Positions 29,497 through 62,558 of a stretch of 64,000 nt of DNA are shown one piece after another. Source of the stretch: Marsupella aquatica (taxonomy: Eukaryota; Plantae; Marchantiophyta); assembly GCA_973895155.1 (NCBI GenBank), contig OZ316899.1, positions 2,935,455 through 2,999,454 on the forward strand, written 5' to 3'. The position numbers were made by a program, and so were the translations under genes. A model generated the notes under the pieces. The model searched no databases. It saw only the letters and a program-made list of their open reading frames with translations, and had not been told where the DNA came from. The first letter of the stretch is position 1; the number at the start of each line of letters is the position of its first letter.

Positions 29497-29497
29497 T

Positions 29498-30103: not shown

Positions 30104-30107
30104 GGTA

Positions 30108-33100: not shown

Positions 33101-35129
33101 ATGAAGATGTGTTCGCATGGAGCCATCACGATTTAACGAGAGTCTCCCCCGAGTTGGGAGAACACACGATCGATTTGAACCTGGGGGCCCATACAGTACG
33201 GCAGCGACAACGTTGCATGAACCCGAGGTACTCCATCTTAGTGAAGGAGGAAATTGATTGTTTCCTCGCCGCAGATATCATCTACCCGGTAATGGCCAAC
33301 GACTGGGTTTCTCCCATTGTCATTGGACCAAAGAAGGGAGGTACGGATGGAAAACCTAAGATCCGGATTTGTCAAGACTATTGTAAGCTGAACGACGCAA
33401 CCCGAAAAGACCACTACCCGTTACCATTCACGGATATGGTTCTAGATATGGTAGCCTGAAACAAAATTTATACATTCCTTGACGGGTATTCAGGTTATAA
33501 TCAAATCTGGATCCGCCTCTCGGATCAGCTCAAAACAACGTTCACTACGGAATGGGGGACGTTCGCATTTTGGAGAATGCCATTCGGGCTGTGTAACGCC
33601 CCGACCATGTTTTAGCAACTCATGATGAATATCTTCCATGATTTCCTATGGGAATTTCTGGAAATATTTATCGACGACTTTGCCATCTTTGGGATTGTCG
33701 CCATGCACCCCAAACATCTACAACGTACGCTACAACAATGCTGAGAGGTTAACCTCAAGCTACATCCCGCCAAATGTTTTTTTGGGGTAGAGGAGGGAGT
33801 GTTACTTGGGCATCGTGTGTCCAAACGGGGTATCAAGGTGGACCAAGAGAAGGTCGCGGCTTGGATGGCGGTTGTGTTTCCCGTAGATCAAAAAGCGGTA
33901 TGATCCTTCTTGGGCTGTGTAGGGTACTATCGTTGGTTCATTAAAGATTTTGCTAAAATTGCGTTGCCCTTAACTGAGATGATGAAGAAGGACGCAGTGA
34001 TCGAGGAGACACCCAAGAGACGGATTGCTTTCGAAGAACTCCGTAAACGACTCACCACCGCACCTATCATGGTCACCCCGGACTGGAATAAGGAGTTCCA
34101 TGTGTATGTCGATGTGTCAGGGTTCTGTATCGGGTCCGTGCTCAGTCAGCTTGATGAGGACGGACGTGATCACCCCATCTACTTTGCTAGCCGTCAACTA
34201 TGCACAGCCAAAAAAAATATTCTCCCACTGATCGAGAAGCTCTGGGAATAATCTACTCATGTAAGAAGTTCCGACACTATCTGCTCGGCTACAAGGTCAT
34301 ATTCCACACGGATCATGATAGCCTGAAGTACATGGTCAACAAAGCGGATGTGACGGGACGGATAGCACGGTGGGTGCTACTTCTCTAGGAATTTAACTAT
34401 GAAGTTTGGGTTCGGCCAGGAAAGGCACATCTCAATGTCAACTTCTTTTCAAGGCTGGACGGCGTACCAGTTGATCAGTCAATTAATGATACTTTTCCGG
34501 ATGAGGAGTTATTCCACGTAGGGGCACAAACGCCTATGTGGTACGGCTCAATAATCACCTTCCTCTTAACAGGCCGCATCCCATCAATCAGGAGGCCGCC
34601 GCTGTGTTTTTACGAAAGGCCGGGCCGTACGTTATGATACAGGGTCACCTACACAAGGAAGGAGTTAATGGGAAGCTACAATGCTGCTTAGAGTACAAGG
34701 AGATGCTCATCGTTATGCGGGCCTTGCATGAAGAAGAAGCTGGAGGCCATTTCGCGGCTCTCACAACAGCCCAAAAGATTCTAGATTCGGGGTATTGGTG
34801 GCCTACGTTGCATCAAGATGTACAACCCTTTATCAAGGGATGTGATTTGTGCCAACGGGCTGGTGCCCCGAGGAGAACCCATAACCACCCCCTCACTTCT
34901 GTGCCCCCGCTAGCACCATTCGAGAAGTGGCGCATTGATTATATCGGGCCTTTCACTCCAGTTACCCGAAGAGGCAGATGCCGGTACATCCTGCTAGCCA
35001 TCGACTACTCCACTAAATGGGTTGAAGCACGGGCTACGGTGAGGGACGATGCCGCCACAAGCGCCCGATTCTTATACGAGCAGATCTTCACCCAGTTCGG
35101 ACCGCCCTTGGAATTAGTAAGTGACAGTG
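30108..35129 (+). pseudogene. gag-pol: A2 gag-pol, central part (multiple stops/frameshifts)
   Basis: ORF pieces 30223-30963, 30923-31330, 31963-33459, 33910-34251 and 34538-35134 align to A3 gag-pol; broken by A3 in the integrase at ELVSD. Confidence 0.93.
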
Positions 35130-35487
35130 TGTGACGCCGCCGGTACGGCGGTTAATGAGTGATTCAGTCTAACTGCGCTCGGCACGCGCGTTAGGTGGGT
35201 CTTAGGCCGCTATTATTAGCATAACGACAGTATTTAGGTAATCATTAGGGGTAGGACATCATTAGGCAATAAGGGGGACTTCAGGTTCGGGCTGGCGGCG
35301 GGTCGCTATTCGCACACCCGGGTTACGAGCGTGGAGGGGCCCCTCCCTCGGGTCCGTATAACGAACTTAAGGAAGCGGCCACTGACGCACGCTGACTCAG
35401 ACCGGCGGAGTGGCCGGTACACCACAAGCGTGAGCGGTTCAACCTATGGGCGTCGAGGAGACGTCGGGGATCGACAAGCCCTCAAAG

Positions 35488-35494
35488 TATAAAA
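35488..35494 (+). promoter_or_regulatory. TATA box upstream of the LTR-encoded ORF
   Basis: TATAAAA 358-360 bp from the LTR start in four copies (16385, 35488, 45580, 59138) and at the equivalent site in A1 (5195-5201, minus); 108 bp upstream of the ATG. Confidence 0.7.
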
Positions 35495-35595
35495 GGGGAG
35501 CCAACCCTTTGTAGTGCACCAGTCCATCAGTCCGCGCGCCAGCTTCGACCCCAGCTCTCTCGTTCTCTCTAGGTCACCACTACTATCTCCTCTGA

Positions 35596-38238
35596 ATGTC
35601 GCACACGATCCTCTCCAGCTCGGCCATTCGATTCTGGACGCAGTTCCTATCTACCGGAAGGCACTTGGCCGATTCATTGAAACACGCCAACCCGCGCCGA
35701 TACGAGATCGAACATGAATACGAGAGAGCCATCCGCCTAGCAGGACGACACCACTACGTCCTTAACTTTGACTACCCGTCTCAGAGCGAGCTTTACCGAC
35801 CAGCTGAGGTATCTGGGTACTTCTTCAACGGAGACAAATATATCGGGTTCTGGGAAGCATTGCTTCGGCTTCCGGACGAGGTCTTCAATATCCCGGGTAC
35901 AATCGACCTGCAGCGACATCACTTCGACCACATCCCTGCCCAGGTTCGGGCTGTCATTAACGGCGAGTCCAGTACCAACCGTTCGACAAGGGCGTCCGCA
36001 CTCGCTTCGGAGAACTTCTACCAGCACCTGCAGAGCTTCATGGGAACTCGGCCATCAACCAACATGACCAACTCAGCCGGGCCCGTACCCGTACCCGTAC
36101 CCGTGCCCATGCAACCTCAGCTTCAGCTTCAGCCTCAGCCGCAGCCTAGCCAAACCCCACCACCTATCACCCAGCCAGCACAGGTACGCTCCGTCATCAA
36201 TGCTGTGGATCTTAGCGATGACGACGAGGCTACCCCACCCTTGACCAGGCGGCCCAGAGGAACAAGCGCTCGGGGGGCCGACACTATATCGTCCCCACCC
36301 CCTGCTCTGACCCCAGGAGCGGCCCCAGCAGACAACATGGTGACCGTGGCCGCCCCGGGCCCGTTACCAACCGCAGTGGCACTCCCCAGGCCCGATCGAG
36401 AGGATGGGGAAGTATCACCTTCCCCGAGTCAGTCACGGGGAAAGAAGAGGAAGGAATCCGCCACTGCATCCGGGTTACCGTTGGCCACGGTAGCCGTAGC
36501 CAAGGTGACGATGCATCGCATGGGGGAAAACGTTCACAGCAACATCCTCCATCCCAAGCATGCGGTGTACCTGAAGACTCAGGGATTTGAGCACCTCGCC
36601 TCTCTCCCCTGGAACACTTGCAGGTACTACAGGGAGGACATGACAGAATTTGTCAAGAATTATGACGACGTACGTCAACAGACTCGGCTGCGGGGAAGGA
36701 ATATGTCCCTCACAGAAGAACGGCTCAAGATGATCTTCGGGTTACCCGAAGGTGACCATCGAGTCGAATCACGGGCTCCCGGGGGCAAGGGGGCCAAGTA
36801 CCAATCTTCAAGTTTTCCCTCAGAGGGATCAGTAGACAACGGGTTCGTGATGAGGACCTGCCTCATGCCCGAGATAGCTGAGCGGCTGGAGTTCCAGAGG
36901 TACGCTCTCCACATGATGGAACCCCGGGGGGAGATCTTCGCCGCCCAGGTTATCCAGGTCGAGAACTATCGACCTAGGAAATGGGCGTCGTACTTCGCTA
37001 AGAAATTCCATGAAGAGATGGAGCGGCGAAGGAAGACGCTGTACATTGGCGGGAAGGCGTATTTTGCTAGCCACATCGAAATCATTCTTGAGTGGTACGC
37101 CCGGTTTGATCGACGAACCCTTCCCCGCATCAACGTTACAAAGCTGGTCCCAGCTAGGTGGGTTTTTCCGGCATTGGAGAGACGGCCCCAACCCGAGGCC
37201 CGAAGTCCAGTGGACACGCCAGCTTCACCCACCCCACCTCCACAAATAGCTGTAATCGTAACCGAGGAGGCGCCGGAGGGGTCGGTCGTCGCAACCGTTG
37301 ATGTGACCCAACTAGCCGGGCTAAGTACAAAAGTTGGTACGGCAGAGGTCTTACCCGAACCCGGGTCTCCCAAGGACCCGCCGGTGGCAATTCCGGAGAA
37401 CCGGACATCGCTGCAGGAGGACACTCCAGCCCCTTCCAACGTTATGTCCCCAGGGCTGGACGTCACTGCCCCGGCCCCTGCGCGTGTTGATGTCTGCCCG
37501 TGCCCAAATCCGGACAGGCACAACTTGGACCACCCGAAACTCTTCGTACAGAGTACGTTTCTGAACGGGCTTCTGGGAGATTTCTCTCATCAAATTGCCC
37601 GGGATACCGGGGAGTTCATGGCCCGGAAGGTAGCCTGTTTCTTCAATCAGGAGTTAGTTGCCGCCGTAAAGGCAGGTCGGGCCCAGTCGGAGGTCCTTCA
37701 GAGGATAGAGCGGTACCGGGTGGAGTCCGTGTACCTAAAGAACGAAGTGGCGGCTCAAGAGGCTGAGCTTCTGCAACTACGACCCAAGGTTGCAGCCGCC
37801 GATGAGTTGTTAGCAAAGGCGTACGCTCTTACCGCCCTAGCCGAACAGGCCAAAGCTGGGAACGAGGCCGAGATTACACGACTTCGGAACCAGATTGATA
37901 GTTTGAAGAAACAAGCTGTCACCTGGCAGAAAGACCTGGAGGAGGCCGAGGAGCGAGCCCAGCGGGACGCGACGGAGATAGCCACGCTGCAGGCCGAGAT
38001 GGCGCGGCTCCAAACCGAGGCCGAGAAGCAGGACCAGCTGGCGAGTAAACTGACGAGCGACGCCCAGCAGCTGGAGGAGGCATGTCAGGAGGCAGCAGAG
38101 GAGACGGACGCGGCGAGGCGAGAGAACGAATCTCTGCTGGACCAGGTCCAGCTCCTCAAGGCGGACAATGACAGGCTTCAAAGGCAGCGGGATGGCTGTT
38201 CCCATTCGGGCGGCTCTGGCAAGCGTGCCAGGCATTAG
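35596..38238 (+). CDS. Intact 880-aa LTR-encoded accessory protein (N-terminal domain, Pro/Gln-rich linker, plant-transposon-like domain, long coiled coil, basic C-terminus)
   Basis: Uninterrupted ORF wholly inside the LTR; homologous ORFs in all family A LTRs; basic motifs RGKKRKE and GKRARH; no obvious transmembrane segment. Confidence 0.88.
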   Translation: MSHTILSSSAIRFWTQFLSTGRHLADSLKHANPRRYEIEHEYERAIRLAGRHHYVLNFDYPSQSELYRPAEVSGYFFNGDKYIGFWEALLRLPDEVFNIPGTIDLQRHHFDHIPAQVRAVINGESSTNRSTRASALASENFYQHLQSFMGTRPSTNMTNSAGPVPVPVPVPMQPQLQLQPQPQPSQTPPPITQPAQVRSVINAVDLSDDDEATPPLTRRPRGTSARGADTISSPPPALTPGAAPADNMVTVAAPGPLPTAVALPRPDREDGEVSPSPSQSRGKKRKESATASGLPLATVAVAKVTMHRMGENVHSNILHPKHAVYLKTQGFEHLASLPWNTCRYYREDMTEFVKNYDDVRQQTRLRGRNMSLTEERLKMIFGLPEGDHRVESRAPGGKGAKYQSSSFPSEGSVDNGFVMRTCLMPEIAERLEFQRYALHMMEPRGEIFAAQVIQVENYRPRKWASYFAKKFHEEMERRRKTLYIGGKAYFASHIEIILEWYARFDRRTLPRINVTKLVPARWVFPALERRPQPEARSPVDTPASPTPPPQIAVIVTEEAPEGSVVATVDVTQLAGLSTKVGTAEVLPEPGSPKDPPVAIPENRTSLQEDTPAPSNVMSPGLDVTAPAPARVDVCPCPNPDRHNLDHPKLFVQSTFLNGLLGDFSHQIARDTGEFMARKVACFFNQELVAAVKAGRAQSEVLQRIERYRVESVYLKNEVAAQEAELLQLRPKVAAADELLAKAYALTALAEQAKAGNEAEITRLRNQIDSLKKQAVTWQKDLEEAEERAQRDATEIATLQAEMARLQTEAEKQDQLASKLTSDAQQLEEACQEAAEETDAARRENESLLDQVQLLKADNDRLQRQRDGCSHSGGSGKRARH

Positions 38239-39146
38239 CGGCGGAGTAGGAATAGATTAGGATTAGGATTGGCTTAGTCAGGCTCTTGGGACAGGCACCT
38301 GCCTTAGGTACAGCAGCGCTGCCCTGCTGTCCAGCCTGCGTAAATTAGGATCTTCTAATAAGACACAGCCGTTTTCCGGCCTGACTGTCAGCTTAGTTAG
38401 GACCTTAGTCAGTGAATCTTCGGCGAGAGGACACCCCGTTCCTCGGCTCTTAGTATTTAGTGCACCCCTCGGTAGAGGCAGGGGGGTTTTTAGTTTCAGA
38501 GTCGGACATCCGCGGGACATGCGGGGAGTCCCGACCTCTGGGAATGACAGAGTACCAAGGGGAGGGGGTAGGACTAAGCTCGCCGGGCGAGTGCGGAGCC
38601 GGGCTCCGTTGTAGTGTGCACCCTCGGCCTTGAACCTGTGCATTCCAGGGCTGTCGTGTCAACTAAGTGTACGCATATGTTCCCTTTGTAGTAAAATCCT
38701 TTCCCATCATTTTCCTTCATGTAAATCGAGATTGTATGCATGTGTGCGCATATGTGTGTGGGTTTCTCGTATATGGGTGGCAGCGCCAGGCCGAACGCAC
38801 TACCCGAGATGTGCACAGGGTGCAGCCTGCGGGTAAGTGGTTGCGAGCACGGGTTGAGGACCTGTATCATCGAATCCGGATCAAAGGCGGACAGCACGAA
38901 GGCTTAGAAGCCCTTAAGCCGGGGTCGATCCTGCTATCGACTAAGGTACGTTCCGGCGGCGGAACACAAACCATACCTAGGAGGTGTTCGTATTTAGCAG
39001 TATGCGCACTTAGCGCTAGTTTACGAGAATAAGGTGCATTACGTGCTTCCCTTCCTGCCCGAACCCTCAGATTTACGAGGGATGTGCCCGTCTAAGCTGA
39101 AGTCTGAGTTAAGGCCGAAGCCTACGACGTGACATAGCCTTTGTTT

Positions 39147-39164
39147 TGGCGCTAGATGGAGGGG
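39147..39164 (+). other. A3 primer-binding site, tRNA-Asn-like
   Basis: TGGCGCTAGATGGAGGGG, 12 nt after the LTR end. Confidence 0.72.
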
Positions 39165-39257
39165 GCACTCTACATATCATAGAGGGGAGACATGTGCGTA
39201 TTCACCTAGGCAGGATACATCAGGACGTAGTACTAACCATTGCATTTATATGAGTAA

Positions 39258-42200
39258 ATGCCCGTCACTCGTTCTCAAGCAGCTTATTTGAGGAGATTGA
39301 CCAGCGAACGAGAAAGTGCAACCACAACAAGCTCCGACTCGTCGGGCTCGGAGGACTCGCAATCGTCCCGACGTATGAACATACCCCCGGGATCTTCGGG
39401 GTCCGGTTCGACCGGCCCTACTGCGGTTCCACCACCACCACCACCACCACCACCTATGGCAGCCGCTCCACCGGTGGCCCGCGCTACTCAGGCGCCTCCA
39501 CAAATATCGCAACGATCGCGATTTCATTATCGACCTTTCAAAGGGCGTCATGGGGATGATCCGGATGAATGGTTGGATGAGTTTGAAGCCACTGCTAAAG
39601 CTAATGGGGAAGACGCCATTAAGCTAACCGTCCTCCCGGGAGTGATGCGGGGAGAAGCTCGTCCATGGTACAACTCATTACCACCCGGGACTACCTGGGC
39701 ACAATTCCAAGCTGCATTGCTGCAGGAGTTTCGTGCCATTGGATCAGAACAGCGTTCTCTATTAAAGATTGGCCAGCTTCGCATGGGAAAAAGGGAGTCC
39801 CTGCGGAAGTTCATTCAGAAGTTTCAGAAACTTGCGGCCAAGATCCGGCCCAGGCCAGGAGACGCGCTCCAGCTTACATGGTTCCTTCATGGTTTGCCCA
39901 CGAATATGCAATTCTGGGTACGCCAGAATAATCCAATTTCAATGCAGGCGGCCATAGCGTGCGCCGAAACTTAACGGGAGTCCACCTATAACTCCCGGCG
40001 GAGCCAGCGAGCACGCCGCAGGAAGGGTAAGTACGAAACCTTCAGTGACAGTGACTCCGAATCGGACGATGAGAGGAAGAAGAAACGCAAGAAGAAGAAG
40101 AAACATCGTTCGACCTCGTCCAGCTCCGAGACGGAATCCAGTTCGGATTCAGCTTCAAGCATCGGATCCTCTACCTCCAGTTCATCAGGAAGTGACTTGG
40201 AGAGCGAAAGCCGGAGCAAAAAGAAGAAGAGACGAGTGAAGAAGGAGGGGAAGATTAAACCCCGGGCGCGAAGAACGATACCAGATCCAAAGGCTGCCGA
40301 AGCAGACAAGCTGAACGAAATCACGGATCGACTCAAAGCACTGTCAGTACATCTTGCAGAAAAGCCGGTGGAGAAGAAGAAGCCATCTGAGATTCGAGCC
40401 CATGCGTGGTGTTCAAAGTGCTTCCAATCCGGCCATGTGGTGCAGGAATGCCCAAGGTGGAAGAACCGAGTTCACCAAGTAGAGCTGGATGATGTTGACA
40501 ACCCGGGCCCCGAATCGGAGTCCACGGAGTATTTCTTTGAGGACCCTCCTGATTCCGTGTACCAGATTTCAACGGTAGGACCGCGTAATTTAGCGGGTAG
40601 AACTGCGTACCCCTACCCAAGTAATGGCCGGAGTTTCCAGGTTATCAGTAACCCGAGCATCCCTCCTAAGCCAGGGATTTGGCGGTCCCCGGTTTGTTAC
40701 AACTGTGAAAAGCCAGGACACTTTGCGAGGGAATGCACCGAACCAAGACGTCAGGGAGATGGCCGAGGCACCCCACTATGTCAAGTTTGCAAAATGGAGG
40801 CTCATTCCATGTCCAACTGTCCGTTGGTAATCGCTGCTCGAACGAGTGCGGCTAGACCGGCCCAGGCTGGACCAGTCACGAGCGATGCAGTCGTCCAAAT
40901 GATTGCTGTAGAATGGCAAGATGACAACATCGAGTGGGTGAATCTGGTGGACGTGGCGGAACACCCTAATCCATTGGATGAGGCCGAGTGCTACCGAGTG
41001 TCGACAAGGGCCGAACGGAAGGAAGAAAAGACGGAGGAGAAACGGAGGAAAAAGCAAGATACTACTCCGGTGCAACCAGCGATAAATATACCCCCGGAAA
41101 AGGACGATGACTACCGACGGGACGACCCAAAGCTGTTTTTCCCCCGCATCGAAGAATTGGTAAAGAAACAGCTGGAGGCTTACGAAGCTCGGGAATACCA
41201 GAAGGCAATCGATAAGGACATCAAAGCAGCCGAGACAGCCCGGCGTCAGGAGCAAGAAAAGCAAGATAAAGAAGAGGAAGCCAAGCAGCAGCCAACGAAA
41301 GAAACAAAGGAGGACTATGATATTAAGGAGGACGTGAAGAGTTGCCCGGTTACAGCGACGGTGGGGCAACTACTGTAGAACAACCCACAGTACAGACGAC
41401 AACTGAGGGAGTTGCTCATGGGTCGCCGAAGGAGGAGACTACCCCGAGTTGGGAGTGCGGACTGCAACATGATATGCGAGGACCTTGGAGCGCCGGACAT
41501 CTCGATCAAAATTAATAACTGTACCATCAAGATGGTTCTTGTAGACGGAGGAGCGGGAGTCAACATCATGACTGAAGAAACGTCAGTCAAGTTAGGATAC
41601 CTCACGTATCAACCCACGGCCCGAGCTATCAGATTAGCAAACGGGGCAAGGGTCCTCCCATTAGGCACACTCACACGAGTGCTCACTCTGGTGGGAGGGG
41701 TAGAGTTCTATCTCAACTTCTTAGTCATGAGGCCGGTTCGTCCCTCCTCTTATCCGGTTCTTCTGGGCAGGCCGTGGTTGTACGGTGGCCGTGTAGTCAC
41801 GGATTGGGGAAAGAAGGAGCTACGGTTCGGGGAACCCACCGTACGGGTATCCTGGGCAATGGACGATTATCAGGGAGAAACCCCACAAGGACCCAAGGAA
41901 TATGATTCGGAGACCTCGGAGGAAGAGGAACTCAATATGATCGAACTCATCTCGTCCCTATCCGAGGAAGATGTCTTCGGAGTTGAAGCAACCCGAGAAA
42001 CACATCTCCTGAATTACCCGAGAGCTGCCATTGAGTCCACCCCAAGTACATCTACTGTCGGGGATGAGGAAACGCACGAACAACTCGTCGAGACGGAGGA
42101 CACGGCTCCAGCTAAGCAGGGAGCCGAGGCTACTCCTTCCATTTCAGAGCCTCGTAACCATGAACCAGCCCAACAACCGCCTGAGGCCGAAAACTCGAGA

Positions 42201-45200
42201 CCGAGACATAAAAAGCGAGTCTCATGGGATCCGTCCATTCCGCAATTGGAGGAAGTAAACCCCATCCCGAGACCAATCCCGGTCCCACCCATGTATGGAG
42301 GGGTTCGGTTAGCTGAGCTTGACGCGAGCCTGGACCCGAGTCTGCGAAACCAGGTTGAAGTCATCAGGAAGGAGCACTACCGGAAGTACACTATTGGGAT
42401 GGACAAATCTTTTAACCTGGGCCACGCTCTGACGGGGAAGGCTGAAAAATCCATCCAAGCTTTGCTCAAGGAATATGAAGATGTGTTTGCATGGAGTCAT
42501 CATGATTTAACAGGCGTCTCCCCCGAGTTGGGAGAACACACAATCGATCTGAACCTAGGAGCCCATGCGGTACGACAGCGACAACGTCGCATGAATCCGA
42601 GGTACTCCATCTTAGTGAAGGAGGAAATTGATCGTCTCCTCGCCGCCGATATCATTTACCCGGTAATGGCCAGCGACTGGGTCTCTCCCATTGTCATTGT
42701 ACCAAAGAAGGGAGGTACGGATGGAAAACCTAAGATTCGTATCTGTCAGGACTACCGTAAGCTGAATGACGCAACCCGAAAAGACCATTACCCATTACCA
42801 TTCACGGATATGGTTCTAGATATGGTGGCCCGAAATGAAATCTATACATTTCTTGACGGGTATTCAGGTTATAACCAAATCTGGATTCGTCTCGCGGATC
42901 AGCTCAAAACAACTTTCACTACGGAGTGGGGAACGTTCGCATTTCGGAGGATGTCTTTTAGTCTGTGTAACGCCCCGGCTATGTTTCAGCGCCTTATGAT
43001 GAATATCTTCCACGATTTCCTACGGGAATTTTTGGAGATATTTATCGATGACTTTGCCATCTTCGGAACCGTTGCCATGCACCCCGAACACCTACGACAA
43101 ACGTTGCAACGATGCCGAGATGTTAACCTCAAACTACATCCCGCCAAATGCTTCTTCGGGGTAGAGGAGGGGGTGTTACTCGGGCATCGTGTGTCCAAAC
43201 GGGGCATTGAGGTGGACCAAGAGAAAGTTGCGGCCTGGATGGCGGTGGTGTTCCCCTTGGATCAAAAAGCAGTACGATCCTTCTTGGGCTGCGTAGGGTA
43301 TTACCGCCGGTTCATTAAAGACTTTGCTAAAATTGCGTTGCCCTTAACTGAGATGATGAAGAAGGACGCAGCGGTCGAGGAGACACCCCGAAGATGGATT
43401 GCTTTTGAGGAACTCCGTAAACGACTCACCACCGCGCCTATCATGGTCACCCCAGACTGGAATAAGGAGTTCCACGTGTATGTCGATGTGTCAGGGTTCT
43501 GTATCGGATCCGTACTTAGTCAGCTAGATGAGGATGGACGTGATCACCCCATCTATTTTGCTAGCCGTCAACTATTTGCAGCCGAAAAGAATTATTCCCC
43601 CACTGATCGAGAAGCTTTGGGAATAATCTACTCGTGTAAAAAGTTCCGACACTATCTGCTAGGCTACAAGGTCATTTTCCACACGGATCATGATAGCCTG
43701 AAGTACATGGTCAACAAAGCGGATGTGACAGGACGGATAGCCCGGTGGGTGCTACTTCTCCAGGAATTTAATTACGAAGTTCGGGTTCGGCCAGGAAGGG
43801 TACACCTCAATGCCGATTTCTTTTCACGACTGGACGGCGTACCAGTCGATCAGCCAATTGATGATATTTTTCCGGATGAGGAGTTGTTCCACGTGGGGGA
43901 AGGGACACCAACGTGGTACGGCTCAATAATCACCTTCCTTTTAACGGGCCGCATCCCTGACGGCATCAATCAGGAGGCCGCCGCTGTGTTTTTACGGAAA
44001 GCCAGGCCTTACGTCATGATACAGGGTCACCTACATAAGGAAGGTATTAACGGAAAGTTACGACGCTGCTTAGAGTATAAGGAGACACTTATCGTGATAC
44101 GGGCCCTGCATGAAGAAGAAGCTGGAGGCCATTTCACGGCAGTTACGACAGCCCGAAAGATTCTGGACTCGGGGTATTGGTGGCCTACGTTGCATCGGGA
44201 TGTACAGCGCTTCATTAAGGGCTGTGACTTGTGTCAGCGAGCGGGGGCCCCGAGGCGGGCTCATCATCACCCGCTCACATCTGTGCTTCCATTGGCACCA
44301 TTCGAAAAATGGGGAATTGATTATATCGGACCATTCACTCCCGTTACCCGAAGGCGAAGGTGCAGATACATCCTATTAGCTATTGATTACTCCACCAAAT
44401 GGGTCGAAGCGCGGGCTACGGTAAAGGACGACGCCGCAACCAGTGCCAGATTCTTATACGAACAGATTTTCACCCGATTCGGACCGCCCTTAGAATTGGT
44501 AAGCGACCGTGGAACCCACTTCCTCAATGACACCGTAGCCCAGCTTACGGAGCGTTACCTAGTCAAGCACCGCAAGACTACCCCATATCATCCTAAAGCC
44601 AACGGGATGGCGGAGAGAGCAAATGGTATCATTGGGAAGATCCTCAACAAAACTGTAGCTGCGCACAAAACGGATTGGGATGATAAGTTGTACGCGGCGG
44701 TGTACTCGTATAATCTAGCTTACAAAACTACTACGAGTCACAGCCCGTACTTTCTGGTGTTCGGCCAACATTCGTTGGTGCCCGTCGAATTTGAAGTGCA
44801 CACTCCACGGGTCAGCATTCGGGATCGCTTACCTGAATCTGAAAGTCTGTCAGACCGAGCTTATCAGATTGAAGCCTTGGAAGAAGCACGGCTACTGGCA
44901 GCTCGACACACCGTGAAGAAACAGGCAACTTCGAAGAAGCAGCACGACAAAGGACTACGGAGGGTCGACGTCATGGCAGGCGATCTAGTCCTTCTGTACG
45001 ATAGTAGGTACATGCAGTTTCCAGGGAAGCTGCATACCCGGTGGTTGGGGCCCTTCCTTGTCAATCAGATCTACCGAAACGGATCTTTGGAGCTTGCGAC
45101 GTATGCCAGCGATTTACTCCCCACGCGAATCAGCTACGATCGTGTAAAAAAGTACCACCATCAAGATGACGACGCCGATAGCGATGTTCGCGAGGACGCT

Positions 45201-45254
45201 TCACAATTAAGCAGGGAGCTATGTGACGCCGCCGGTACGACGGTTAATGAGTGA
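39258..45254 (+). pseudogene. gag-pol: A3 gag-pol, single frame (~1998 codons) with two premature stops; Athila-like, no chromodomain
   Basis: ORFs 39258-39974, 40197-41378 and 41412-45254 share one frame; stops TAA (39972; TAC in sister copies) and TAG (41376; CAG in A2). PR VLVDGGAG, RT RICQDYRKLNDATRKDHYPLPF/FIDD, RH YVDVSG, IN HEEEAGGH..CDLC, DDE core, GPF. Confidence 0.95.
45209..45221 (+). other. A3 polypurine tract
   Basis: AAGCAGGGAGCTA immediately before TGTGACG; same motif before the A2 3' LTR (58765-58777). Confidence 0.8.
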
Positions 45255-47303
45255 TTCAGTCTAACTGCGCTCGGCACGCGCGTTAGGTGGGTCTTAGGCC
45301 GCTATTATTAGCATAACGACAGTATTTAGGTAATCATTAGGGGTAGGACATCATTAGGCAATAAGGGGGACTTCAGGTTCGGGCTGGCGGCGGGTTGCTA
45401 TTCGCACACCCGGGTTACGAGTGTGGAGGGGCCCCTCCCTCGGGTCCGTATAACGAACTTAAGGAAGCGGCCACTGACGCACGCTGACTCAGACCGGCGG
45501 AGTGGCCGGTACACCACAAGCGTGAGCGGTTCAACCTATGGGCGTCGAGGAGACGTCGTGGATCGACAAGCCCTCAAAGTATAAAAGGGGAGCCAACCCT
45601 TTGTAGTGCACCAATCCATCAGTCCGCGCGCCAGCTTTGACCCCAGCTCTCTCGTTCTCTCTAGGTCACCACTACTATCTCCTCTGAATGTCGCACACGA
45701 TCCTCGCCTCTCTCCCCTGGAACACTTGCAGGTACTACGGGGAGGACATGACAGAATTTGTCAAGAATTATGACGACGTACGTCAACAGACTCGGCTGCG
45801 GGGAAGGAATATGTCCCTCACAGAAGAACGGCTCAAGATGATCTTCGGGTTACCCGAAGGTGACCATCGAGTCGAATCACGGGCTCCCGGGGGCAAGGGG
45901 GCCAAGTACCAATCTTCAAGTTTTCCCTCAGAGGGATCAGTAGACAACGGGTTCGTGATGAGGACCTGCCTCATGCCCGAGATAGCTGAGCGGCTGGAGT
46001 TCCAGAGGTACGCTCTCCACATGATGGAACCCCGGGGGGAGATCTCCGCCGCCCAGGTTATCCAGGTCGAGAACTATCGACCTAGGAAATGGGCGTCGTA
46101 CTTCGCTAAGAAATTCCATGAAGAGATGGAGCGGCGAAGGAAGACGCTGTACATTGGCGGGAAGGCGTATTTCGCTAGCCACATCGAAATCATTCTTGAG
46201 TGGTACGCCCGGTTTGATCAACGAACCCTTCCCCGCATCAACGTTACAAAGCTGGTCCCAGCTAGGTGGGTTTTTCCGGCATTGGAGAGACGGCCCCAAC
46301 CCGAGGCCCGAAGTCCAGTGGACACGCCAGCTTCACCCACCCCACCTCCACAAATAGCTGTAATCGTAACCGAGGAGGCGCCGGAGGGGTCGGTCGTCGC
46401 AACCGTTGATGTGACCCAACTAGCCGGGCTAAGTACAGAAGTTGGTACGGCAGAGGTCTTACCCGAACCCGGGTCTCCCAAGGACCCGCCGGTGGCAATT
46501 CCGGAGAACCGGACATCGCTGCAGGAGGACACTCCAGCCCCTTCCAACATTATGTCCCCAGGGCTGGACGTCACTGCCCCGGCCCCTGCGCGTGTTGATG
46601 TCTGCCCGTGCCCAAATCCGGACAGGCACAACTTGGACCACCCGGAACTCTTCGTACAGGGTACGTTTCTGAACGGGCTTCTGGGAGATTTCTCTCATCA
46701 AATTGCCCGGGATACCGGGGAGTTCATGGCCCGGAAGGTAGCCTGTTTCTTCAATCAGGAGTTGGTTGCCGCCGTAAAGGCAGGTCGGGCCCAGTCGGAG
46801 GCCCTTCAGAGGATAGAGCGGTACCGGGTGGAGTCCGTGTACCTAAAGAACGAAGTGGCGGCTCAAGAGGCTGAGCTTCTGCAACTACGACCCAAGGTTG
46901 CAGCCGCCGATGAGTTGTTAGCAAAGGCGTACGCTCTTACCGCCCTAGCCGAACAGGCCAAAGCTGGGAACGAGGCCGAGATTACACGACTCCGGAACCA
47001 GATTGACAGTTTGAAGAAACAAGCTGTCACCTGGCAGAAAGACCTGGAGGAGGCCGAGGAGCGAGCCCAGCGGGACGCGACGGAGATAGCCACGCTGCAG
47101 GCCGAGATGGCGCGGCTCCAAACCGAGGCCGAAAAGCAGGACCAGCTGGCGAGTAAACTGACGAGCGACGCCCAGCAGCTGGAGGAGGCATGTCAGGAGG
47201 CAGCAGAGGAGACGGACGCGGCGAGGCGAGAGAACAAATCTCTACTGGACCAGGTCCAGCTCCTCAAGGCGGACAATGACAGGCTTCGAAGGCAGCGGGA
47301 TGG
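45222..47303 (+). repeat. A3 3' LTR, left part (984-bp internal deletion; interrupted by chromovirus)
   Basis: Near-identical to 35130-~38194 apart from loss of 35614-36597. Confidence 0.95.
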
Positions 47304-47376
47304 AGTGGTGGCCTTCCCACCACGTGCCCGTCCAAACTCGTTTCTCAGCCTTGAAACAAGTCGAACCTTGCACTAA
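45688..47376 (+). pseudogene. LTR ORF, A3 3' copy: in-frame deletion, C-terminus replaced by chromovirus LTR sequence
   Basis: MSHTIL fused to ASLPWN; reads into the chromovirus after RRQRDG. Confidence 0.9.
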
Positions 47377-49415
47377 CACGGAATGTTGGGGCAAGTTCTC
47401 CCCGACTATACTCCTTGTCGTTAGCGACCCCTCCCATACGAAGCCGCACTTGCCCTCGTCAGCACAACCGTCGCTCAACGGTCTTTGCTATCTGCACAAG
47501 CAACCAACCAACCGGTAAGAACTTGTCTTGATCTCGGAACTCCCAAGACCATTGTCTTGCCTCAAGCTCAACAGTCGTTAGTAAGTAGGTCAGCGGATAG
47601 AGCCTCCCAGGCCCGCATAGCCTTGCCATAAGCTGAAACTAAGGTCGACATCACTGTTCGTCCAGAACAGTCTATCTACCGGATGTCGCCCAAGCTTCCC
47701 CACTTTCTACCCGTCAATGGCTGACCGCCCTGCCTCTAGGACATGCCCATGGCCCAAACTCAGTTTGTCACAAACTAGTAGTAACACGCCGGGACCATTC
47801 AGTTTCTCGATCTTAGCCACCTCTCTGCGAAACCGGGTTCCACTCAACCTCTCACCATGCATCGGGACCAGATCTCAATGGCAGCCCCCAGAGTCTACTT
47901 GGTTCTACCTCTCCAACATCAGGTCCCCGTGGGAACCAAATGCGGTTTGGTCACTGTTCGACTTCGGATCGGCAAGAGGGACTCCCCCCATTGCAAGCCT
48001 CAAAACCAAAATCATCCAATGCACAATCAGAGAGCACCATGAGGTAGCTTTCTTCATTAGCTTTCCAACGAGCCCAAGAACTCCCCCAACGGAGATCCGG
48101 TCGTCGAGTTATGTTTGTTTCCGCTTCAAAACTCGAAACGACGTATCTTCGTCGATCGCGATCAGCTCGAGCTCAAACTTGAGAGGACCACTCCCCTCAT
48201 ATATGCTTCTGGGGACCTGCCACCCCCGGACCAGCTTTGGTCCCCTATCTTTGGCCCCCTACCCGAGGGTCCGTGGGCCCCGCCACTTAGCTCGAAACGA
48301 AGATAATCGAAAATCTTCCGTAACTTGGCCTCGAGCGCAAATTGTGGCATAAGGGGCTAAAAGTTACGGCCCTAACCCCGCTCTGGTCCAGGCAACCCCC
48401 CCTGGTCCAGGCAACCCCTTCTTGGTCCATCGATGCGCGGCGACTCTAATCGAGTCTAAATCGGCCATAATTTTTGGCCCCTAGGTCCGTTGGCCAAAAA
48501 ATATACGGCCCCATGATCGGGCTCATGTGGGGCTTCTCAGGCCCCTATGGTGATCCGTTGGAAAAATAGTTCATTTTTCCGTGATCGGCAACGGGCCCAA
48601 ACTACAAGTATGCGGCTTGAGTCGGCCATAACTTTTGGCCCCAGGGTCCGTTGGCCGAGAAATATGCGGCCCCATGATTGGGCTCATGTAGGGCTTCTCG
48701 GGCCCCTATGGTGATCCGTTGGAAAAATAGTTCATTTTTCCACGATCGGCAACGGGCCCAAACTACAAGTATGCGGCTTGAGTCGGCCATAACTTTTGGC
48801 CCCTGGGTCCGTTGGCCAAGAAATATGCGGCCCCATGATTGGGCTCATGTAGGGCTTCTCGGGCCTCTATGGTGATCCGTTGGAAAAATAGTTCATTTTT
48901 CCATGATCGGCAACGGGCCCAAACTACAAGCATGCGGCTTGAGTCGGTCATAACTTTTGGCCCCTGGGTCCGTTGGCCGAGAAATATGCGGCCCCATGAT
49001 CGGGCTCATGTGGGGCTTCTCGGGCCCCTATGGCGATCCGTTGGAAAAATAGTTCATTTTTCCATGATCGGCAACGGGCCCAAACTACAAGCATGCAGCT
49101 TGAGTCGGCCATAACTTTTGGCCCCTGGGTCCGTTGGCCGAGAAATATGCGGCCCCATGATCGGGCTCATGTGGGGCTTCTCGGGCCCCTATGGTGATCC
49201 ATCAGAAAAATAGATCATATTTCCGTGATCGGCAATGGGCCCAATAAAGTTAATTGGAGCGCGCTTTTCTCAAGTCTTGTCCTTGCTCTTACTAGCCTCC
49301 TCTTTGTTAGTCGCATCCCTAATGGCCATGATGGTAGCAAATCTAAGAGGGGCTCAACGCTGGAGTTAGGCAACGCCGGAGCAAATACGAGTAGGTGAAA
49401 GTTGTATTCGCGACT
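47304..49415 (-). repeat. Chromovirus 3' LTR (2112 bp)
   Basis: Same length as 55007-57118; about 8 substitutions found by eye. Confidence 0.97.
48462..49244. repeat. 161-bp tandem array (~4.9 units) in the chromovirus LTR
   Basis: Unit starts CGG(C/T)CATAA at 48462, 48623, 48784, 48945 and 49106, spaced exactly 161 bp. Confidence 0.96.
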
Positions 49416-49419
49416 TGCA

Positions 49420-49431
49420 CCCCCCCTTTTT
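49420..49431 (-). other. Chromovirus polypurine tract
   Basis: AAAAAAGGGGGG on the minus strand, 4 nt (TGCA) before the 3' LTR. Confidence 0.85.
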
Positions 49432-49846
49432 GAATGGTTGACGTCCGCGTCAACCAAATGGGTACCATACCACACGCCTAGACCAATTGGCGTCTAGAAG
49501 GTGATGGAAGGTAACAAGTGGTCCGTCCTATAAGGTAGACACGGACCTAGTTGAAGTGCGCATCTCAAGTCTTAGAGAAATTCAACTTATCTAACAAACG
49601 AGTTAGATGTCAGTATGCTTGGGCAAGCCGACTCCTTGTCCAACAAACCCGTCAATCTTCCCCAGAGATAACTCCCACAGGTTGGATCGAACTTGCTTAC
49701 AATGTATGCAAGTACCAAATAGCTTAAACGTAAGGATAGCAAAGTGGTTGCCCAACAACCATTAATTCGTGCAGGGTTGAGAACACTCTCAAGAGGCTAA
49801 GTGTGGTGAAACCAGGATACAACTTGCTTAGGTAATTGCAATCGCC

Positions 49847-52800
49847 CTACTTCAATAAGGGGGGCAAGCCGCTCCGCTTACGATAGCTTGCAAGGATATT
49901 GGGACTGTGTTTTAGATTATCTTCGGGCTCCCATGTGCTTTCCGTTTGGTCGTATCCAGACCATTTAACCAAATATTCAAGCATTTGCTTTCCGAGTCGA
50001 CACTTGTATCGGTGATCAAGAATAGTCTCCACGACGTACTCCTCCACATCATCAACAAGCAAGGCATCGGGCCGGAGGACTTGTTGCCGATTTGGGTCCA
50101 AATCCTTTACAAATTTCTTGAGTCGGCTCACATGGTAACTTTTTCCCGTTCCTCTTGAACCGGGCATGTCCAAAACTACAGAGACTGGATTATCCTTGTG
50201 GGCCCATCGCAAGATGCGATAGGGTCCTGCGTACCGGGGTGCCAACTTCCGACTTATCTTATCGTTGTATTGTTCGGGTCTCAATTGCAACCAGACGCTC
50301 TCCCCAATTTTGAAGCTCACCTGGCGTCGATGCTTGTCCCCTTGCTCCTTGTATCGACTTTGGGCAAGGGTCATCCCCTTGGTGGCTGCTTCCACCACTA
50401 GACGCCGCTCTCGAATGAATTCGTCTGCTGCAGGAACCTTGCTTTCCGTTCGCCAAGTATTAGGATTTATGAACCAGGCCGGAGCTCTAGGTTTCCGGCC
50501 TGTGGCCAAAAAGAACGGTGAAAATCCTGTCACCGTATGCGTGGTCGAGTTATACCGAAACTCGGCCATAGTTAAGTGCGTTGACCAATCTTTTTGGTCA
50601 GCACTCACAAAATGGCGTAAATACTCCTCAAGGACCAAATTCAGGCGTTCAGTCTGCCCATCGGTTTCATGATGGTAAGCGGACCCTCTGGTAAGGTCTG
50701 TGCCTGATAACCGGAATAAAGTTTTCCAGAAATGACCCGTGAATTTGGAGTCACGATCAGACAAGATGTGCAAAGGCAATCCCCAAAGTCTGAAGACGTG
50801 ATTAAACACCATTGATGCTACTTCCCGTGCCGAAACTGTCTTGCGCGTAGGAAGGAAATATGCCATCTTAGAAAAACGATCGACGATTGTTAAGATGACA
50901 TCATAGCTATGGGATGATGGAAGACCTTGGATAAAATCCATGGAGATGGACTCCCAAGGTCCGGAAGCCACGGGTAAGGGTTGCAAGAGTCCTCCTTTTG
51001 CCTTGTAAACCGTTCGGTTTTTCTGGCATGAGTAACAACTTTGCACATGTTGGAGTACTGAATTTTTCATGTCTGGCCAATACACGTCGCGGGACATACT
51101 TGAATAAGTAGAACGTTGTCCCCCATGCCCACCCCAAGGCGAGTCATGGTACTTTCTCAGAACCTCTAATCTGAATGACTCAGGAATGTAGACGCGACTT
51201 TGTTTGTATCGCCATAAATTGACATTATATTTCTTGTCCAACACCCAAGACACGTGCCGTATCTTTCCTTGGACACCCCCCTTTTGTTGCCAGTCTTGCG
51301 CAAGTCGGTCGTCCGCATATTGGGCAGCCAAGAGCATGGGCCATTCGGTTTCTAGCATTAAAATGCCATTGGCACGATGATGCTCTTGCCTGGAAAGTGC
51401 ATCAGCAGCCTTATTAATAGTCCCTGGGACATGTTGTACTTCGAAGTCAAAGTCTGCAAGGAACATTTGCCAGCGCATTTCTTTGGGACTCAATCGAGGC
51501 TTAGAATTGAAGTACCCTGCTGGCGAGCTATCTGAATGGACCACAAACTTAGGGCCGTTACGTAGATAGAACTCCCACTTTTTGATTGCATGGATGACGG
51601 CATACAATTCACGTTCTGGGGTGATCCAATGATTCTCTAGCTTACAAGACTCAAAAGCTATTGGGCGCCCGTCTTGATGAAGGCAAGCGCCAATAGCAAA
51701 ATCAGAGGCATCGGTCCATATCTCAAATGGTTTTCCAACTTCCGGTAATTTGAGAACCGGAGGAGTCACCATGCGGCGCTTAAGTTCAAGAAATGCTATT
51801 TCGCAATCTTGGGTCCAAACAAACACTTTATTTTTCATTGTTAACATTGTTAACGGTCTAGAAAGGCGTGCAAAGCCTTGGATGTAACGTCGATAAAAAC
51901 CCACAAATCCCAAAAAGGACCTGACCTGTTTGGCACTTGCGGGTCTTTCCCAATCACGGATATCAACGAGTTTGTCATGGCTTGGTTTGATGCCATCCTC
52001 GGTAAAGGTGTGCCCTAAAAATTGGATTTCATTCATGGCAAACTCACATTTGCTGGGTTTAGCAAAGAGATGAGCTTTGCGCAAGCGCCGAAGCACTTCC
52101 TTTAGTAATTGCTCATGCTCCTCCACGGTTTTTGAATAAATCAAGATGTCGTCAATGAAGACAACCACTCCTTGATCCAACAAATCATGAAAAATTGTGT
52201 TCATCATTTTCATGAACGTGGCTGTGGCATTGCATAATCCAAATGGCATTACCAAATACTCGAAGGATCCAAACCTGGTACGCATGGCGGTTTTATATTC
52301 ATCGCCTTTTGCCATACGAATCTGATAATAACCGGATCGTAAGTCTACCTTAGAAAACTTCCTAGCACCTGAGAGCGAGTCAAATAAATCATCCATATGA
52401 GGTAGCGGATAGCGATTCTTCACCGTTTGTTTGTTGAGGGCTCGATAATCAGCACAAAGTCGTAAGGTCCCGTCTTTCTTGGCCACAAATAGCGCGGGTG
52501 CACCATAAGGACTCTTACTAGGCCTGATAAATCCTTGATTAATCAATTCCTCCAATGCTTCCTTGAGCATTCCACGTTCGTTCAAGTTCAAACGGTAAGG
52601 GGCCTTCGCTTGAGGAGCCGAACCCGGTTCCAGCTCAACTTGGTGATCAACTTCTCTCCGTGGAGGTAATCCCTGAGGTAACTTTTGCGACAAGACATCA
52701 CTGAATTCCTCCAAAATTTCAGGAATTCGTCCGCAATCGGGGCCAATCGTTGCTGTCTTAGACTTATTCATAGAGCTCTTAGTTGGATGGAGATGAAAAA

Positions 52801-54898
52801 AGAAACATTCATGTCCACCCTTGAAGTCCTTCCACCATTGCTTGGCCGAAATACAAGGGGTCAACCATGACACTGTACTTACTTGGAGAAACTTTTCTTT
52901 ATTCTCAGAAATTTCATGTACAATGATGGGATTACCTCCCGTACTCGGGAAAATCAGCAATTCCTTGCTAGGTTGAAGAGTAATATTATGCTTACGGAGG
53001 TAGCCTATAGACAATATAAAGTCTACCTCCAAGCCATCTAAAACAAAGAACCTTTCCTGGCTTACAAAATTCCTATCTTCGCCAACAACTTCTACTTTGA
53101 GATGTTTGACTACTTGTGAAACTAATCCTTGGGTGTCATTGGCAAACTTACACACCAAGGGATCTAACAACTCGTGCACTGTTGCTCCGCTGCGTTCGAC
53201 TGCCGCCTTGCTTATGAAGTTGGCAGTCGCACCTGAATCAATCAAAGCAACACCCCGACAATTGTTAGCTAACGTTTCAATTAGGATAAGTTTGGCAGGA
53301 TCGTCTACCTTTGCATCAATAATCTTCTCTAGCAACACTTCGTCTATATCAGTGATGGAATTACCGTCAGGAGCTCTAGCATCTAACAGAGGATTGGTTA
53401 GAGCGATACTCACCTTAATGCTTTTAGCCCCCGCATCCAAATTAGGTTTGGCGCCCTTGCGTGGACACTCCTTACTTAGATGACCAGGCTCGCCACATTC
53501 GAAGCAAAGCCCTTCCAACTTGCGCTTTTCCTTGATTGCTTCACATTTTGCTTTTTCAGATGATGATTGACCTGGCCTGGGCAAAAACTTCCGTCCACGT
53601 TTGGGGTGGACGGAAGGTCCATGAGAGTTTGCACCTGAACTCGGTCGCTCTGGTTGCTTACGCTTAGCCCCAAAAACTTTGAGTTTCTTACTCTCCGCCA
53701 GCTCGGATTGCTCTTTGCCACCAACCTTAGCCAAACCAGGACGATTGTTCACCAATGTCGTGGCTCGGTCAAAGGCATTAGTGAGTTGTTTAAACTCATG
53801 CTGCCTATCTTGCAATTTCTCGCGGAGCAACGGTGGAAGCTTGACAATGAAATTATGCAATTGCGTTGAAAGGGTTTCATCCCCTTCTGGAATACACGCC
53901 AATTGCATCTGATAGTAGGCGATATACTTCTGTATATCGCCTCTATAAGTCATTTCAGAGACACACTTCTTTGCATGTCGCTCCGGATACTTGGTGGTGA
54001 CATTGAGCCGGAGACCTTCAACCATGTCTTTCCAAACGAGCGGTTGACCACTAGCCTCGAGGGTCTTTGCCCAAGACTTGTACCAAGTTAAGGCATACTC
54101 TCGCAGATACGGGGCGGCAGCGGAGGCCCAAGTGGATGGGGCAGCACATGCTTGGAGATGGATCTCCATAGTAGTGAGCCATTGCCGAAACTTTTGTCCA
54201 CTTTGTTCATAGGCTCCATCATAAGTCGGGGGTGTGGGCAACTGATTGACTTGCACCATACCCCGTCTATTAGGCCAGTCACCCTCGTCGCTTTTGGCAA
54301 GTTCTTTGCCCAAGTTTAAAATGTAAATTAACTGGGCATTTTTGTCAACATCAAGCGCCAAATAAATTTGGCGCTGCTCGGCGGTTAGCTGGTCCAAGAA
54401 GGTCACGGGCCTACTTGCTAACATGGTTGTGCCTGATGAATGTCTCTCCTTTGGTCTCCTTTCTCGAGTCCCTGGTTCCTCCTCTAAAAAGGCTTCCTTG
54501 ATTGGTGGGGGCTCAGAATCACCCGCAATGTCCTCACCATCAAGCCCCAGATTGTCCATAATCAAATCATCATCCTGCTCATCATCTGAAAAGTCAAGCT
54601 CGTGAGCGGCAGGGCTAACTTCCTCTTTTTCAAAGTAGTCAGCCCGCGGATCGCCAAGGCTTGCGATGCTAGCGGGGGTCGTATCAATTGCCTTAATCTT
54701 ACGTCGCTGTCCAGAGATTTCCGACAAAGTAAGAGGGTCAGAATGAAGCCCCCCTACTGACGTCCCACTCATTGGAGTGAATGGAGGGGCCTGAGCCACT
54801 TCAACCATTGATTTTGGCTTGATACGTCGCTTTCGCCCTTCCCCCTTGGCCATCCCAAGATCGATTGCAAATGCTTTCAGTCGCACCACCAAGCCCAA
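49847..54898 (-). CDS. gag-pol: Chromovirus Gag-Pol polyprotein, 1683 aa, intact
   Basis: Knuckle CFECGEPGHLSKEC; PR LIDSGAT; RT LCADYRALN/FIDDILIYS; RH WTDASD; IN HDSPWGGH..CYSC, DDE, GPY; C-terminal chromodomain EYVVETIL...YLVKWSGYD..ESTWEPEDNL with aromatic-cage residues. Confidence 0.97.
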   Translation of the reverse strand: MGLVVRLKAFAIDLGMAKGEGRKRRIKPKSMVEVAQAPPFTPMSGTSVGGLHSDPLTLSEISGQRRKIKAIDTTPASIASLGDPRADYFEKEEVSPAAHELDFSDDEQDDDLIMDNLGLDGEDIAGDSEPPPIKEAFLEEEPGTRERRPKERHSSGTTMLASRPVTFLDQLTAEQRQIYLALDVDKNAQLIYILNLGKELAKSDEGDWPNRRGMVQVNQLPTPPTYDGAYEQSGQKFRQWLTTMEIHLQACAAPSTWASAAAPYLREYALTWYKSWAKTLEASGQPLVWKDMVEGLRLNVTTKYPERHAKKCVSEMTYRGDIQKYIAYYQMQLACIPEGDETLSTQLHNFIVKLPPLLREKLQDRQHEFKQLTNAFDRATTLVNNRPGLAKVGGKEQSELAESKKLKVFGAKRKQPERPSSGANSHGPSVHPKRGRKFLPRPGQSSSEKAKCEAIKEKRKLEGLCFECGEPGHLSKECPRKGAKPNLDAGAKSIKVSIALTNPLLDARAPDGNSITDIDEVLLEKIIDAKVDDPAKLILIETLANNCRGVALIDSGATANFISKAAVERSGATVHELLDPLVCKFANDTQGLVSQVVKHLKVEVVGEDRNFVSQERFFVLDGLEVDFILSIGYLRKHNITLQPSKELLIFPSTGGNPIIVHEISENKEKFLQVSTVSWLTPCISAKQWWKDFKGGHECFFFHLHPTKSSMNKSKTATIGPDCGRIPEILEEFSDVLSQKLPQGLPPRREVDHQVELEPGSAPQAKAPYRLNLNERGMLKEALEELINQGFIRPSKSPYGAPALFVAKKDGTLRLCADYRALNKQTVKNRYPLPHMDDLFDSLSGARKFSKVDLRSGYYQIRMAKGDEYKTAMRTRFGSFEYLVMPFGLCNATATFMKMMNTIFHDLLDQGVVVFIDDILIYSKTVEEHEQLLKEVLRRLRKAHLFAKPSKCEFAMNEIQFLGHTFTEDGIKPSHDKLVDIRDWERPASAKQVRSFLGFVGFYRRYIQGFARLSRPLTMLTMKNKVFVWTQDCEIAFLELKRRMVTPPVLKLPEVGKPFEIWTDASDFAIGACLHQDGRPIAFESCKLENHWITPERELYAVIHAIKKWEFYLRNGPKFVVHSDSSPAGYFNSKPRLSPKEMRWQMFLADFDFEVQHVPGTINKAADALSRQEHHRANGILMLETEWPMLLAAQYADDRLAQDWQQKGGVQGKIRHVSWVLDKKYNVNLWRYKQSRVYIPESFRLEVLRKYHDSPWGGHGGQRSTYSSMSRDVYWPDMKNSVLQHVQSCYSCQKNRTVYKAKGGLLQPLPVASGPWESISMDFIQGLPSSHSYDVILTIVDRFSKMAYFLPTRKTVSAREVASMVFNHVFRLWGLPLHILSDRDSKFTGHFWKTLFRLSGTDLTRGSAYHHETDGQTERLNLVLEEYLRHFVSADQKDWSTHLTMAEFRYNSTTHTVTGFSPFFLATGRKPRAPAWFINPNTWRTESKVPAADEFIRERRLVVEAATKGMTLAQSRYKEQGDKHRRQVSFKIGESVWLQLRPEQYNDKISRKLAPRYAGPYRILRWAHKDNPVSVVLDMPGSRGTGKSYHVSRLKKFVKDLDPNRQQVLRPDALLVDDVEEYVVETILDHRYKCRLGKQMLEYLVKWSGYDQTESTWEPEDNLKHSPNILASYRKRSGLPPLLK

Positions 54899-54992
54899 GC
54901 CGTTAAGATAAGGCCCCGCAAAAAAAAATGTTTATTTTCTTTTGGATTCTGACTTAACTTGACGTTTGGCCCCGGCGTCTATGAAAGCGTAT

Positions 54993-55004
54993 GCTCTGAT
55001 ACCA
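54993..55004 (-). other. Chromovirus primer-binding site, initiator tRNA-Met
   Basis: TGGTATCAGAGC on the minus strand, 2 nt (TG) after the 5' LTR. Confidence 0.95.
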
Positions 55005-55006
55005 CA

Positions 55007-57118: not shown

Positions 57119-57123
57119 GATGG

Positions 57124-58063: not shown

Positions 58064-58068
58064 CAGTG

Positions 58069-62478: not shown

Positions 62479-62558
62479 AATGGCAGAGTATTGGTCTCCT
62501 CACTCTGAAGCCGCCACTTAGTGGTCTTTGTGATCAAGCATGGATTAGGTCATAACTC

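Follow-up and report, generated by a model that had tools for sequence, protein, structure and literature searches.

An accessory gene with a predicted VANC-type core inside the LTR of an Athila-like Gypsy retrotransposon from Marsupella aquatica

Plant Gypsy retrotransposons can carry open reading frames (ORFs) besides gag and pol, and what these extra ORFs do has long been an open question (PMC7264820). In OTA Gypsy elements, such accessory ORFs include Athila ORF-1 (PF03078), Transposase_32 (PF20167), the PMD ORF of Ogre (PF10536) and TRP28 plus SMC of Retand, and they sit either behind pol, ahead of the 3′ long terminal repeat (LTR), or between gag and the 5′ LTR (PMC7264820, PMC6317226). 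An internal placement is also what is described for additional ORFs of plant elements more broadly (PMC7264820, PMC11963269, PMC11728184, PMC3485330, PMC6431247), and the long LTRs of Ogre (1.9–6.5 kb) and Retrosat2 (over 3.2 kb) are described as non-coding, with the extra ORFs internal (PMC6431247, PMC3485330). Sequence-specific anti-silencing by a plant transposable element (TE) protein class is proven for the VANC proteins of VANDAL (Mutator-like) DNA transposons, such as VANC21 of Arabidopsis. The host PMD-C proteins MAIN, MAIL1 and MAIL2, which bind chromatin in a motif-directed manner, are structural kin of VANC (PMC13547354). A whole ORF within an LTR, with an LTR promoter upstream, is known from sag/naf of mouse mammary tumor virus (MMTV), the only such case returned by our literature search (including PMC1560396, PMC9412291 and PMC10787394), which covered mostly papers outside subscription. 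Here, we analyze 64,000 nucleotides of the liverwort Marsupella aquatica (contig OZ316899.1, positions 2,935,455 to 2,999,454; hereafter the window), in which an Athila-like Gypsy retrotransposon, element A, carries a gene for 880 amino acids (aa) wholly inside its LTR. The parts are of known kinds; their combination is new.

A gene inside the LTR of element A

Self-comparison of the window, together with junction sequences, revealed a nest of retrotransposons (Table 1). Element A inserted into the integrase of B, a sister copy that is older. A CAGTG stands at each end of A, with integrase sequence of that copy beyond it, so the boundaries of A are fixed. The original prediction of a 4-kb LTR that contains an entire gene with its own TATA box holds, and the LTR length falls within the range of other large-LTR plant Gypsy elements. 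Contigs of four public runs span the entire 5′ LTR, and mixed loose contig ends at 35130 (agreement 0.48 and 0.46, in two of the four runs) are those expected of an element boundary; contig depth in these runs does not equal copy number.

The boundaries had also been said to follow independently from the primer-binding site (PBS) as well as the polypurine tract (PPT). The target-site duplication (TSD) at both ends, a PBS-like word and a PPT were all found, but the PBS lies 12 nt from the LTR end in A, 15 nt in B and 13 nt in C, a second sister copy. The normal spacing is 0–5 nt, and all three spacers are longer. The PBS of A is putatively of tRNA-Asn type; a scan for a matching tRNA gave no stretches, and a PBS scan for related loci returned one unrelated phage contig. 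Self-priming of the Tf1 type was rejected, as the 12-nt spacer has no complement of at least 8 nt anywhere in the LTR.

RT_RNaseH was the only RNase H-type match among the nine families listed for element A, and neither a chromodomain nor a second RNase H was matched. Athila elements are described as having a 5-bp TSD (4 bp in Phygy and Selgy), a PBS for tRNA-Asp or tRNA-Asn and, unlike Tat, no additional RNase H (PMC6317226). Because of its Gypsy domain order, the missing chromodomain and second RNase H, and its 5-bp TSD, element A fits Athila better than Tat, Phygy or Selgy, and by sequence it appears to be an Athila-like Gypsy element, short of formal membership. Pol had been described as ending at the PPT, whereas in A and B it runs through the PPT to a stop codon 33 nt inside the 3′ LTR.

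Between the two LTRs of element A, 29 differences were counted over 3021 aligned bases (Kimura two-parameter distance 0.0097), with 24 of the 28 transitions in CG or CHG. Since 984 bp are missing from the 3′ LTR, including codons ~6–333 of the ORF, and the sister LTRs are also disrupted, the ORF is intact in one of the six LTR copies in the window, the 5′ LTR of A. The idea that each element carries the gene twice thus applies at insertion only; the copies seen no longer do so.

The accessory ORF is a real gene under purifying selection, as comparison among the LTRs, a check that had been proposed, made clear. For the whole ORF, comparison with B (806 codons) gives a dN/dS of 0.177 and comparison with C (817 codons) one of 0.183; the two are not independent because B and C are related. 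Values are lowest in the core (0.07–0.08), followed by the N-terminal domain and coiled coil (0.16–0.23) and the linkers (0.28–0.34), while control frames gave 1.2–1.8 (shifted sense) and 1.0–1.8 (antisense, except for the mirror frame at 0.27–0.29). As dS of the ORF (1.06–1.08) equals that of pol (1.03), the accessory gene and pol diverged together. In the public-run contigs, none of the seven common indels listed falls in the ORF; among 40 variants listed of 359, 31 lie in the ORF, 16 of them synonymous and 15 not, where 34% synonymous would be expected for transitions. Nine listed variants private to the 5′ LTR of A (six non-synonymous, three synonymous) look neutral, as expected after insertion.

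Table 1. Features of element A and its surroundings (positions in the window; + numbers in remarks count from the LTR start).
Feature	Position	Strand	Remarks
Sister LTR C	1610..5524	-	3915 bp, ~79% identical to A; ORF with 5 in-frame stops and frameshifts
Remnant of other LTR of copy C	10796-12181		truncated
Family E paralogue E1	12560..16024	-	same core at 26% identity plus coiled coil; broken
Sister LTR B	16025..19978	+	3954 bp, ~80% identical to A; ORF with 4 in-frame stops and frameshifts
Element A	35130-58063	+	internal region 39135-45221 between its two LTRs
TSD CAGTG of element A	35125..35129, 58064-58068	+	left and right; from junction sequences
5′ LTR of element A	35130..39134	+	4005 bp, termini TGTGACG...CGTGACA
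YAGTATTTA, head copy	35228..35236	+	+99; weak, post hoc candidate binding site
TATAAAA	35488..35494	+	+359; sole canonical TATA of LTR; CT-rich leader follows
Accessory ORF, 880 aa	35596..38238	+	wholly within 5′ LTR, intronless
N-terminal conserved domain, aa 1-145	35596..36030	+	no known family; same position in relative P0006
KKRK, like a nuclear localization signal (NLS)	36442..36453	+	RKRK in B and C; KRK ahead of core in family E
Core domain, aa 300-515	36493..37140	+	predicted VANC21-like fold
Heptad coiled coil, aa ~755-870	37858..38205	+	predicted
KRARH, C-terminal, NLS-like	38221..38235	+	identical in B and C
YAGTATTTA, tail copy (TAGTATTTA)	38451..38459	+	+3322; in 6/6 LTR tails; alternatively weak second TATA
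G-rich purine tract	38557..38575	+	possible relic or second PPT; 320 nt behind ORF
U/A-rich TGTA stretch	38670..38750	+	likely poly(A) region, from composition; ~430-510 nt past ORF
Two strongest splice-donor-like words of LTR	38831..38952	+	GT at 38833 and 38946 (+3704/+3817); in A, B, C
Spacer, then PBS-like TGGCGCTAGATGGAGGGG	39135..39164	+	12-nt spacer, PBS 39147-39164
TACTAAC, branch-point-like, before gag ATG	39231..39237	+	in A, B, C
gag-pol frame	39258..45254	+	GAG-PR-RT-RH-INT; two in-frame stops in gag
PPT AAGCAGGGAG	45209..45218	+	within pol reading frame
3′ LTR of element A, first part	45222..47303	+	984-bp deletion within ORF
Nested chromovirus	47304..57118	-	in ORF end of element A 3′ LTR; TSD GATGG
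3′ LTR of element A, second part	57119..58063	+	beyond nested chromovirus
3′ LTR of copy B	58778..60229	+	deleted, chimeric
Family E paralogues E2 (-) and E3 (+)	60230..64000	both	divergent core relatives

A predicted VANC21-like core and a candidate role

Structure prediction, which had been suggested as a further check, covered the core only; a first model from a six-row alignment reached a pLDDT of 36. The predicted core resembles VANC21 (PDB 9LNJ/9LNK), a TE-encoded anti-silencer and the sole solved structural match, in an isolated, whole-domain hit with a middling Z and 10% identity, so that on the model the fold would be of VANC21 type. Leads from the Atlas point to the neighborhood of DUF1985, PMD and Transposase_32 for the core and to PMD for paralogue E2. 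The Atlas neighbors are Streptophyta, which, like the share of LTR transitions in CG or CHG, suggests a streptophyte host. By sequence, neither the ORF nor the core matched DUF1985 or DUF287 in Pfam, the ORF had no direct match at the Pfam thresholds of Transposase_32, ATHILA ORF-1 or PMD, and three of 81 relatives score 17–18 bits against a gathering cut-off of 45. A word-index protein search gave no match for the full ORF and one for the core, alignment against longer proteins gave none, and with the core nothing was returned by a PDB sequence search or, at E ≤ 0.001, by a viral fold library. Scans for related loci confirmed none of 144 pattern matches in metagenomes and, for reverse transcriptase, none of four in viral contigs. 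Two relatives, P0053 and P0067, have an N-terminal DDE_Tnp_4 (Harbinger-type) fragment, hinting that the core domain also moves with DNA transposons.

In contrast to VANC genes, the 880-aa gene is carried within an LTR by a Gypsy retrotransposon and not by a VANDAL/MuDR DNA transposon, and it lacks both the DUF1985/DUF287 matches and tandem motif arrays; binding of short, often tandem motifs in the element's own non-coding DNA and sequence-specific demethylation are features of VANC and candidate features here. With the accessory ORFs of OTA Gypsy elements it shares a non-chromovirus host, sense orientation, a globular plant-TE domain, a coiled coil, NLS-like motifs and the 5-bp TSD, but its place is within the LTR, a 3′ spacer is missing, and it reaches none of the Pfam cut-offs. 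MAIN, MAIL1 and MAIL2 belong to the host, contain introns and act on host targets, while the 880-aa ORF falls short of the PMD family in Pfam.

A nuclear and possibly anti-silencing factor had been suggested for this ORF, and purifying selection, the conserved basic motifs and the VANC21 structural match support this, along with the LTR-internal gene itself and the Athila-type affinity proposed for it. On the predicted fold, we somewhat favor a product that acts as a nuclear coiled-coil oligomer, binds short motifs in the LTRs of its own family and protects them from methylation silencing. The protein would enter the nucleus by its NLS-like motifs and oligomerize through the predicted coiled coil, its VANC/PMD-type DNA-binding fold would recognize the motifs, and the bound LTRs would be kept from methylation-based silencing. 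A candidate site is YAGTATTTA: it has ten matches in the window, every one of them in a non-coding part of this family's LTRs, and they fall at two positions (+99 and +3322). Several points weigh against this site: the word was spotted post hoc and is unlike the VANC21 motif; the head of C has lost it; and head and tail share ten nine-mers, this one among them, where 3.8 are expected. Tandem motif arrays were not found, the word occurring twice per LTR. No significant similarity was detected between the LTR head and tail, or between either and the family E flanks. The head has one local match to the LTR of the nested chromovirus, scoring above 200 of 200 shuffles.

As to origin, an accessory gene located 3′ of pol, with its own promoter, may have been absorbed into the LTR when an upstream PPT in the end of pol took over plus-strand priming. 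From the sequence such a shift, which had been suggested before, is plausible, because the working PPT is short and inside pol and the ORF is followed, 320 nt further on, by a stronger tract rich in G. Extra PPTs have been reported in Athila4 and Calypso (PMC2829016). The benefit would be that each round of reverse transcription copies and homogenizes the regulator together with its target sites. A bolder and, on the model, rather unlikely extension is that a retrotransposon's own VANC-type anti-silencer moved into the LTR with its binding sites, making each LTR, solo LTRs included, an autonomous anti-silencing cassette, possibly transcribed within a 3.2-kb R. In that case the fold would represent an ancient counter-defense of retrotransposons that predates the dicot VANCs.

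The predicted fold would tie Gypsy extra ORFs structurally to the VANC anti-silencing class, and since one 4-kb repeat holds the gene with its promoter, a poly(A)-like region and the candidate target sites, the idea is directly testable. The gene is an exception to the usual rule of non-coding retrotransposon LTRs, and solo LTRs, usually seen as dead ends, could go on producing a trans-acting regulator.

Transcription layout and alternative readings

The conserved TATA, previously noted at +358, is TATAAAA at +359 and is kept in all five LTR copies that retain the head; the CT-rich leader is conserved in the sister LTRs. With the sole canonical TATA ahead of the ORF and, behind it, a stretch resembling a poly(A) region, the LTR reads as a full cassette: a ~3.2-kb mRNA would end at ~+3550–3620, and every LTR, whether 5′, 3′ or solo, would be self-contained. 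These signals suit an R of great length no less well than a U3 placement. We see an even chance that genomic RNA comes from the same promoter and reads past the 5′ poly(A) site, which would put the gene in an R of ~3.2 kb; that R ends ahead of the ORF, with the gene in U5, is improbable. Both options, a 3.2-kb R and a second LTR promoter, would be out of the ordinary. The conserved donor-like words late in the LTR, together with TACTAAC plus AG just ahead of the gag ATG (39231-39254), suggest a leader intron whose splicing would remove the PBS; TACTAAC is not enriched, with five matches in the window, and is a lead only. A consensus fold of the LTR tail had a weak covariation term (−1.36 kcal/mol; double changes in 9 of 85 pairs) and was not used.

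A second promoter behind the ORF comes somewhat below the long R in our estimate. The protein and its role would be the same, but the gene would lie in U3 with its own TATA, as sag does in MMTV, and genomic RNA would start at a non-canonical promoter in the 0.9-kb tail, with a short R and a U5 of ~0.4 kb. The likeness to MMTV is one of layout: the host is a Gypsy element and not a retrovirus, no homology is implied, the U3 placement here is putative, and the sag product is a far shorter membrane superantigen. Such a layout needs neither 3.6-kb strong-stop DNA nor a bicistronic gag message; the conserved TAGTATTTA at +3322 could serve as a weak TATA, and the donors at +3704 and +3817, with TACTAAC ahead of gag, would suit a short spliced leader. 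The tail, however, has no canonical TATA in any copy scanned, many ATGs lie from +3355 to gag, and the +359 TATA with its CT-rich leader resembles an ordinary plant LTR promoter. Precedents for separate promoters are MMTV, whose sag is driven by a U3 promoter (PMC9412291), and Grande, whose gene23 possesses its own (PMC7264820).

Less probable again, though the main rival as regards function, is a DNA or chromatin binder other than an anti-silencer, such as a transcriptional activator, a repressor controlling copy number or an integration-targeting adaptor. The predicted fold is common to MAIN/MAIL, which silence TEs and also counteract Polycomb where promoters carry their motif (bioRxiv 2024.09.27.615353), and tandem target arrays were not found. 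Element A also sits in a sister of its own family, although nested insertion is frequent in such clusters, and the sole solved structural match favors anti-silencing. An env-like or particle protein for movement or packaging is very unlikely: Athila 3′ ORFs have been termed env-like and a sunflower Athila accessory ORF with Transposase_32 has a transmembrane helix (PMC11728184), but the 880-aa ORF has no hydrophobic segment or transmembrane helix (maximum KD19 1.13), and it has two conserved NLS-like motifs and a predicted DNA-binding-protein fold. A local duplication or a captured host gene as the nature of the 4-kb repeat, or a neutral passenger as that of the ORF, which loss of the ORF from five of six LTR copies and the neutral-looking private variants might suggest, has next to no chance and is already refuted by the selection data (dN/dS 0.18, dS equal to pol), barring a short genome-wide family LTR, and is opposed as well by the TSD at both ends, a layout common to three elements ~20% apart, the intronless ORF and relatives in other mobile-looking parts of the window.

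Neighboring elements in the window

The 3′ LTR of copy B has a head 90% and a tail 78% like the B 5′ LTR, without a matching TSD. The family E paralogues E2 and E3 are divergently oriented, ~250 bp apart, with a TATA-like word at each, and are possibly a single element with two divergent accessory genes; contigs aligned over family E revealed no element boundaries. The chromovirus nested in element A is young, with an intact 1668-aa ORF and 2112-bp LTRs that are 99.6% alike; its PBS is of tRNA-Met type, its termini are AGT...ACT in place of TG...CA, and each LTR contains a 161-bp tandem array. In another nested Gypsy element, at ~20306-30105, there is a C5 cytosine methyltransferase domain (PF00145, E 2e-10) together with a PHD finger behind its integrase (25209-25865, 28849-29322), for which KnitGypsy-Dnmt3 of Klebsormidium offers a comparison (PMC5890265).
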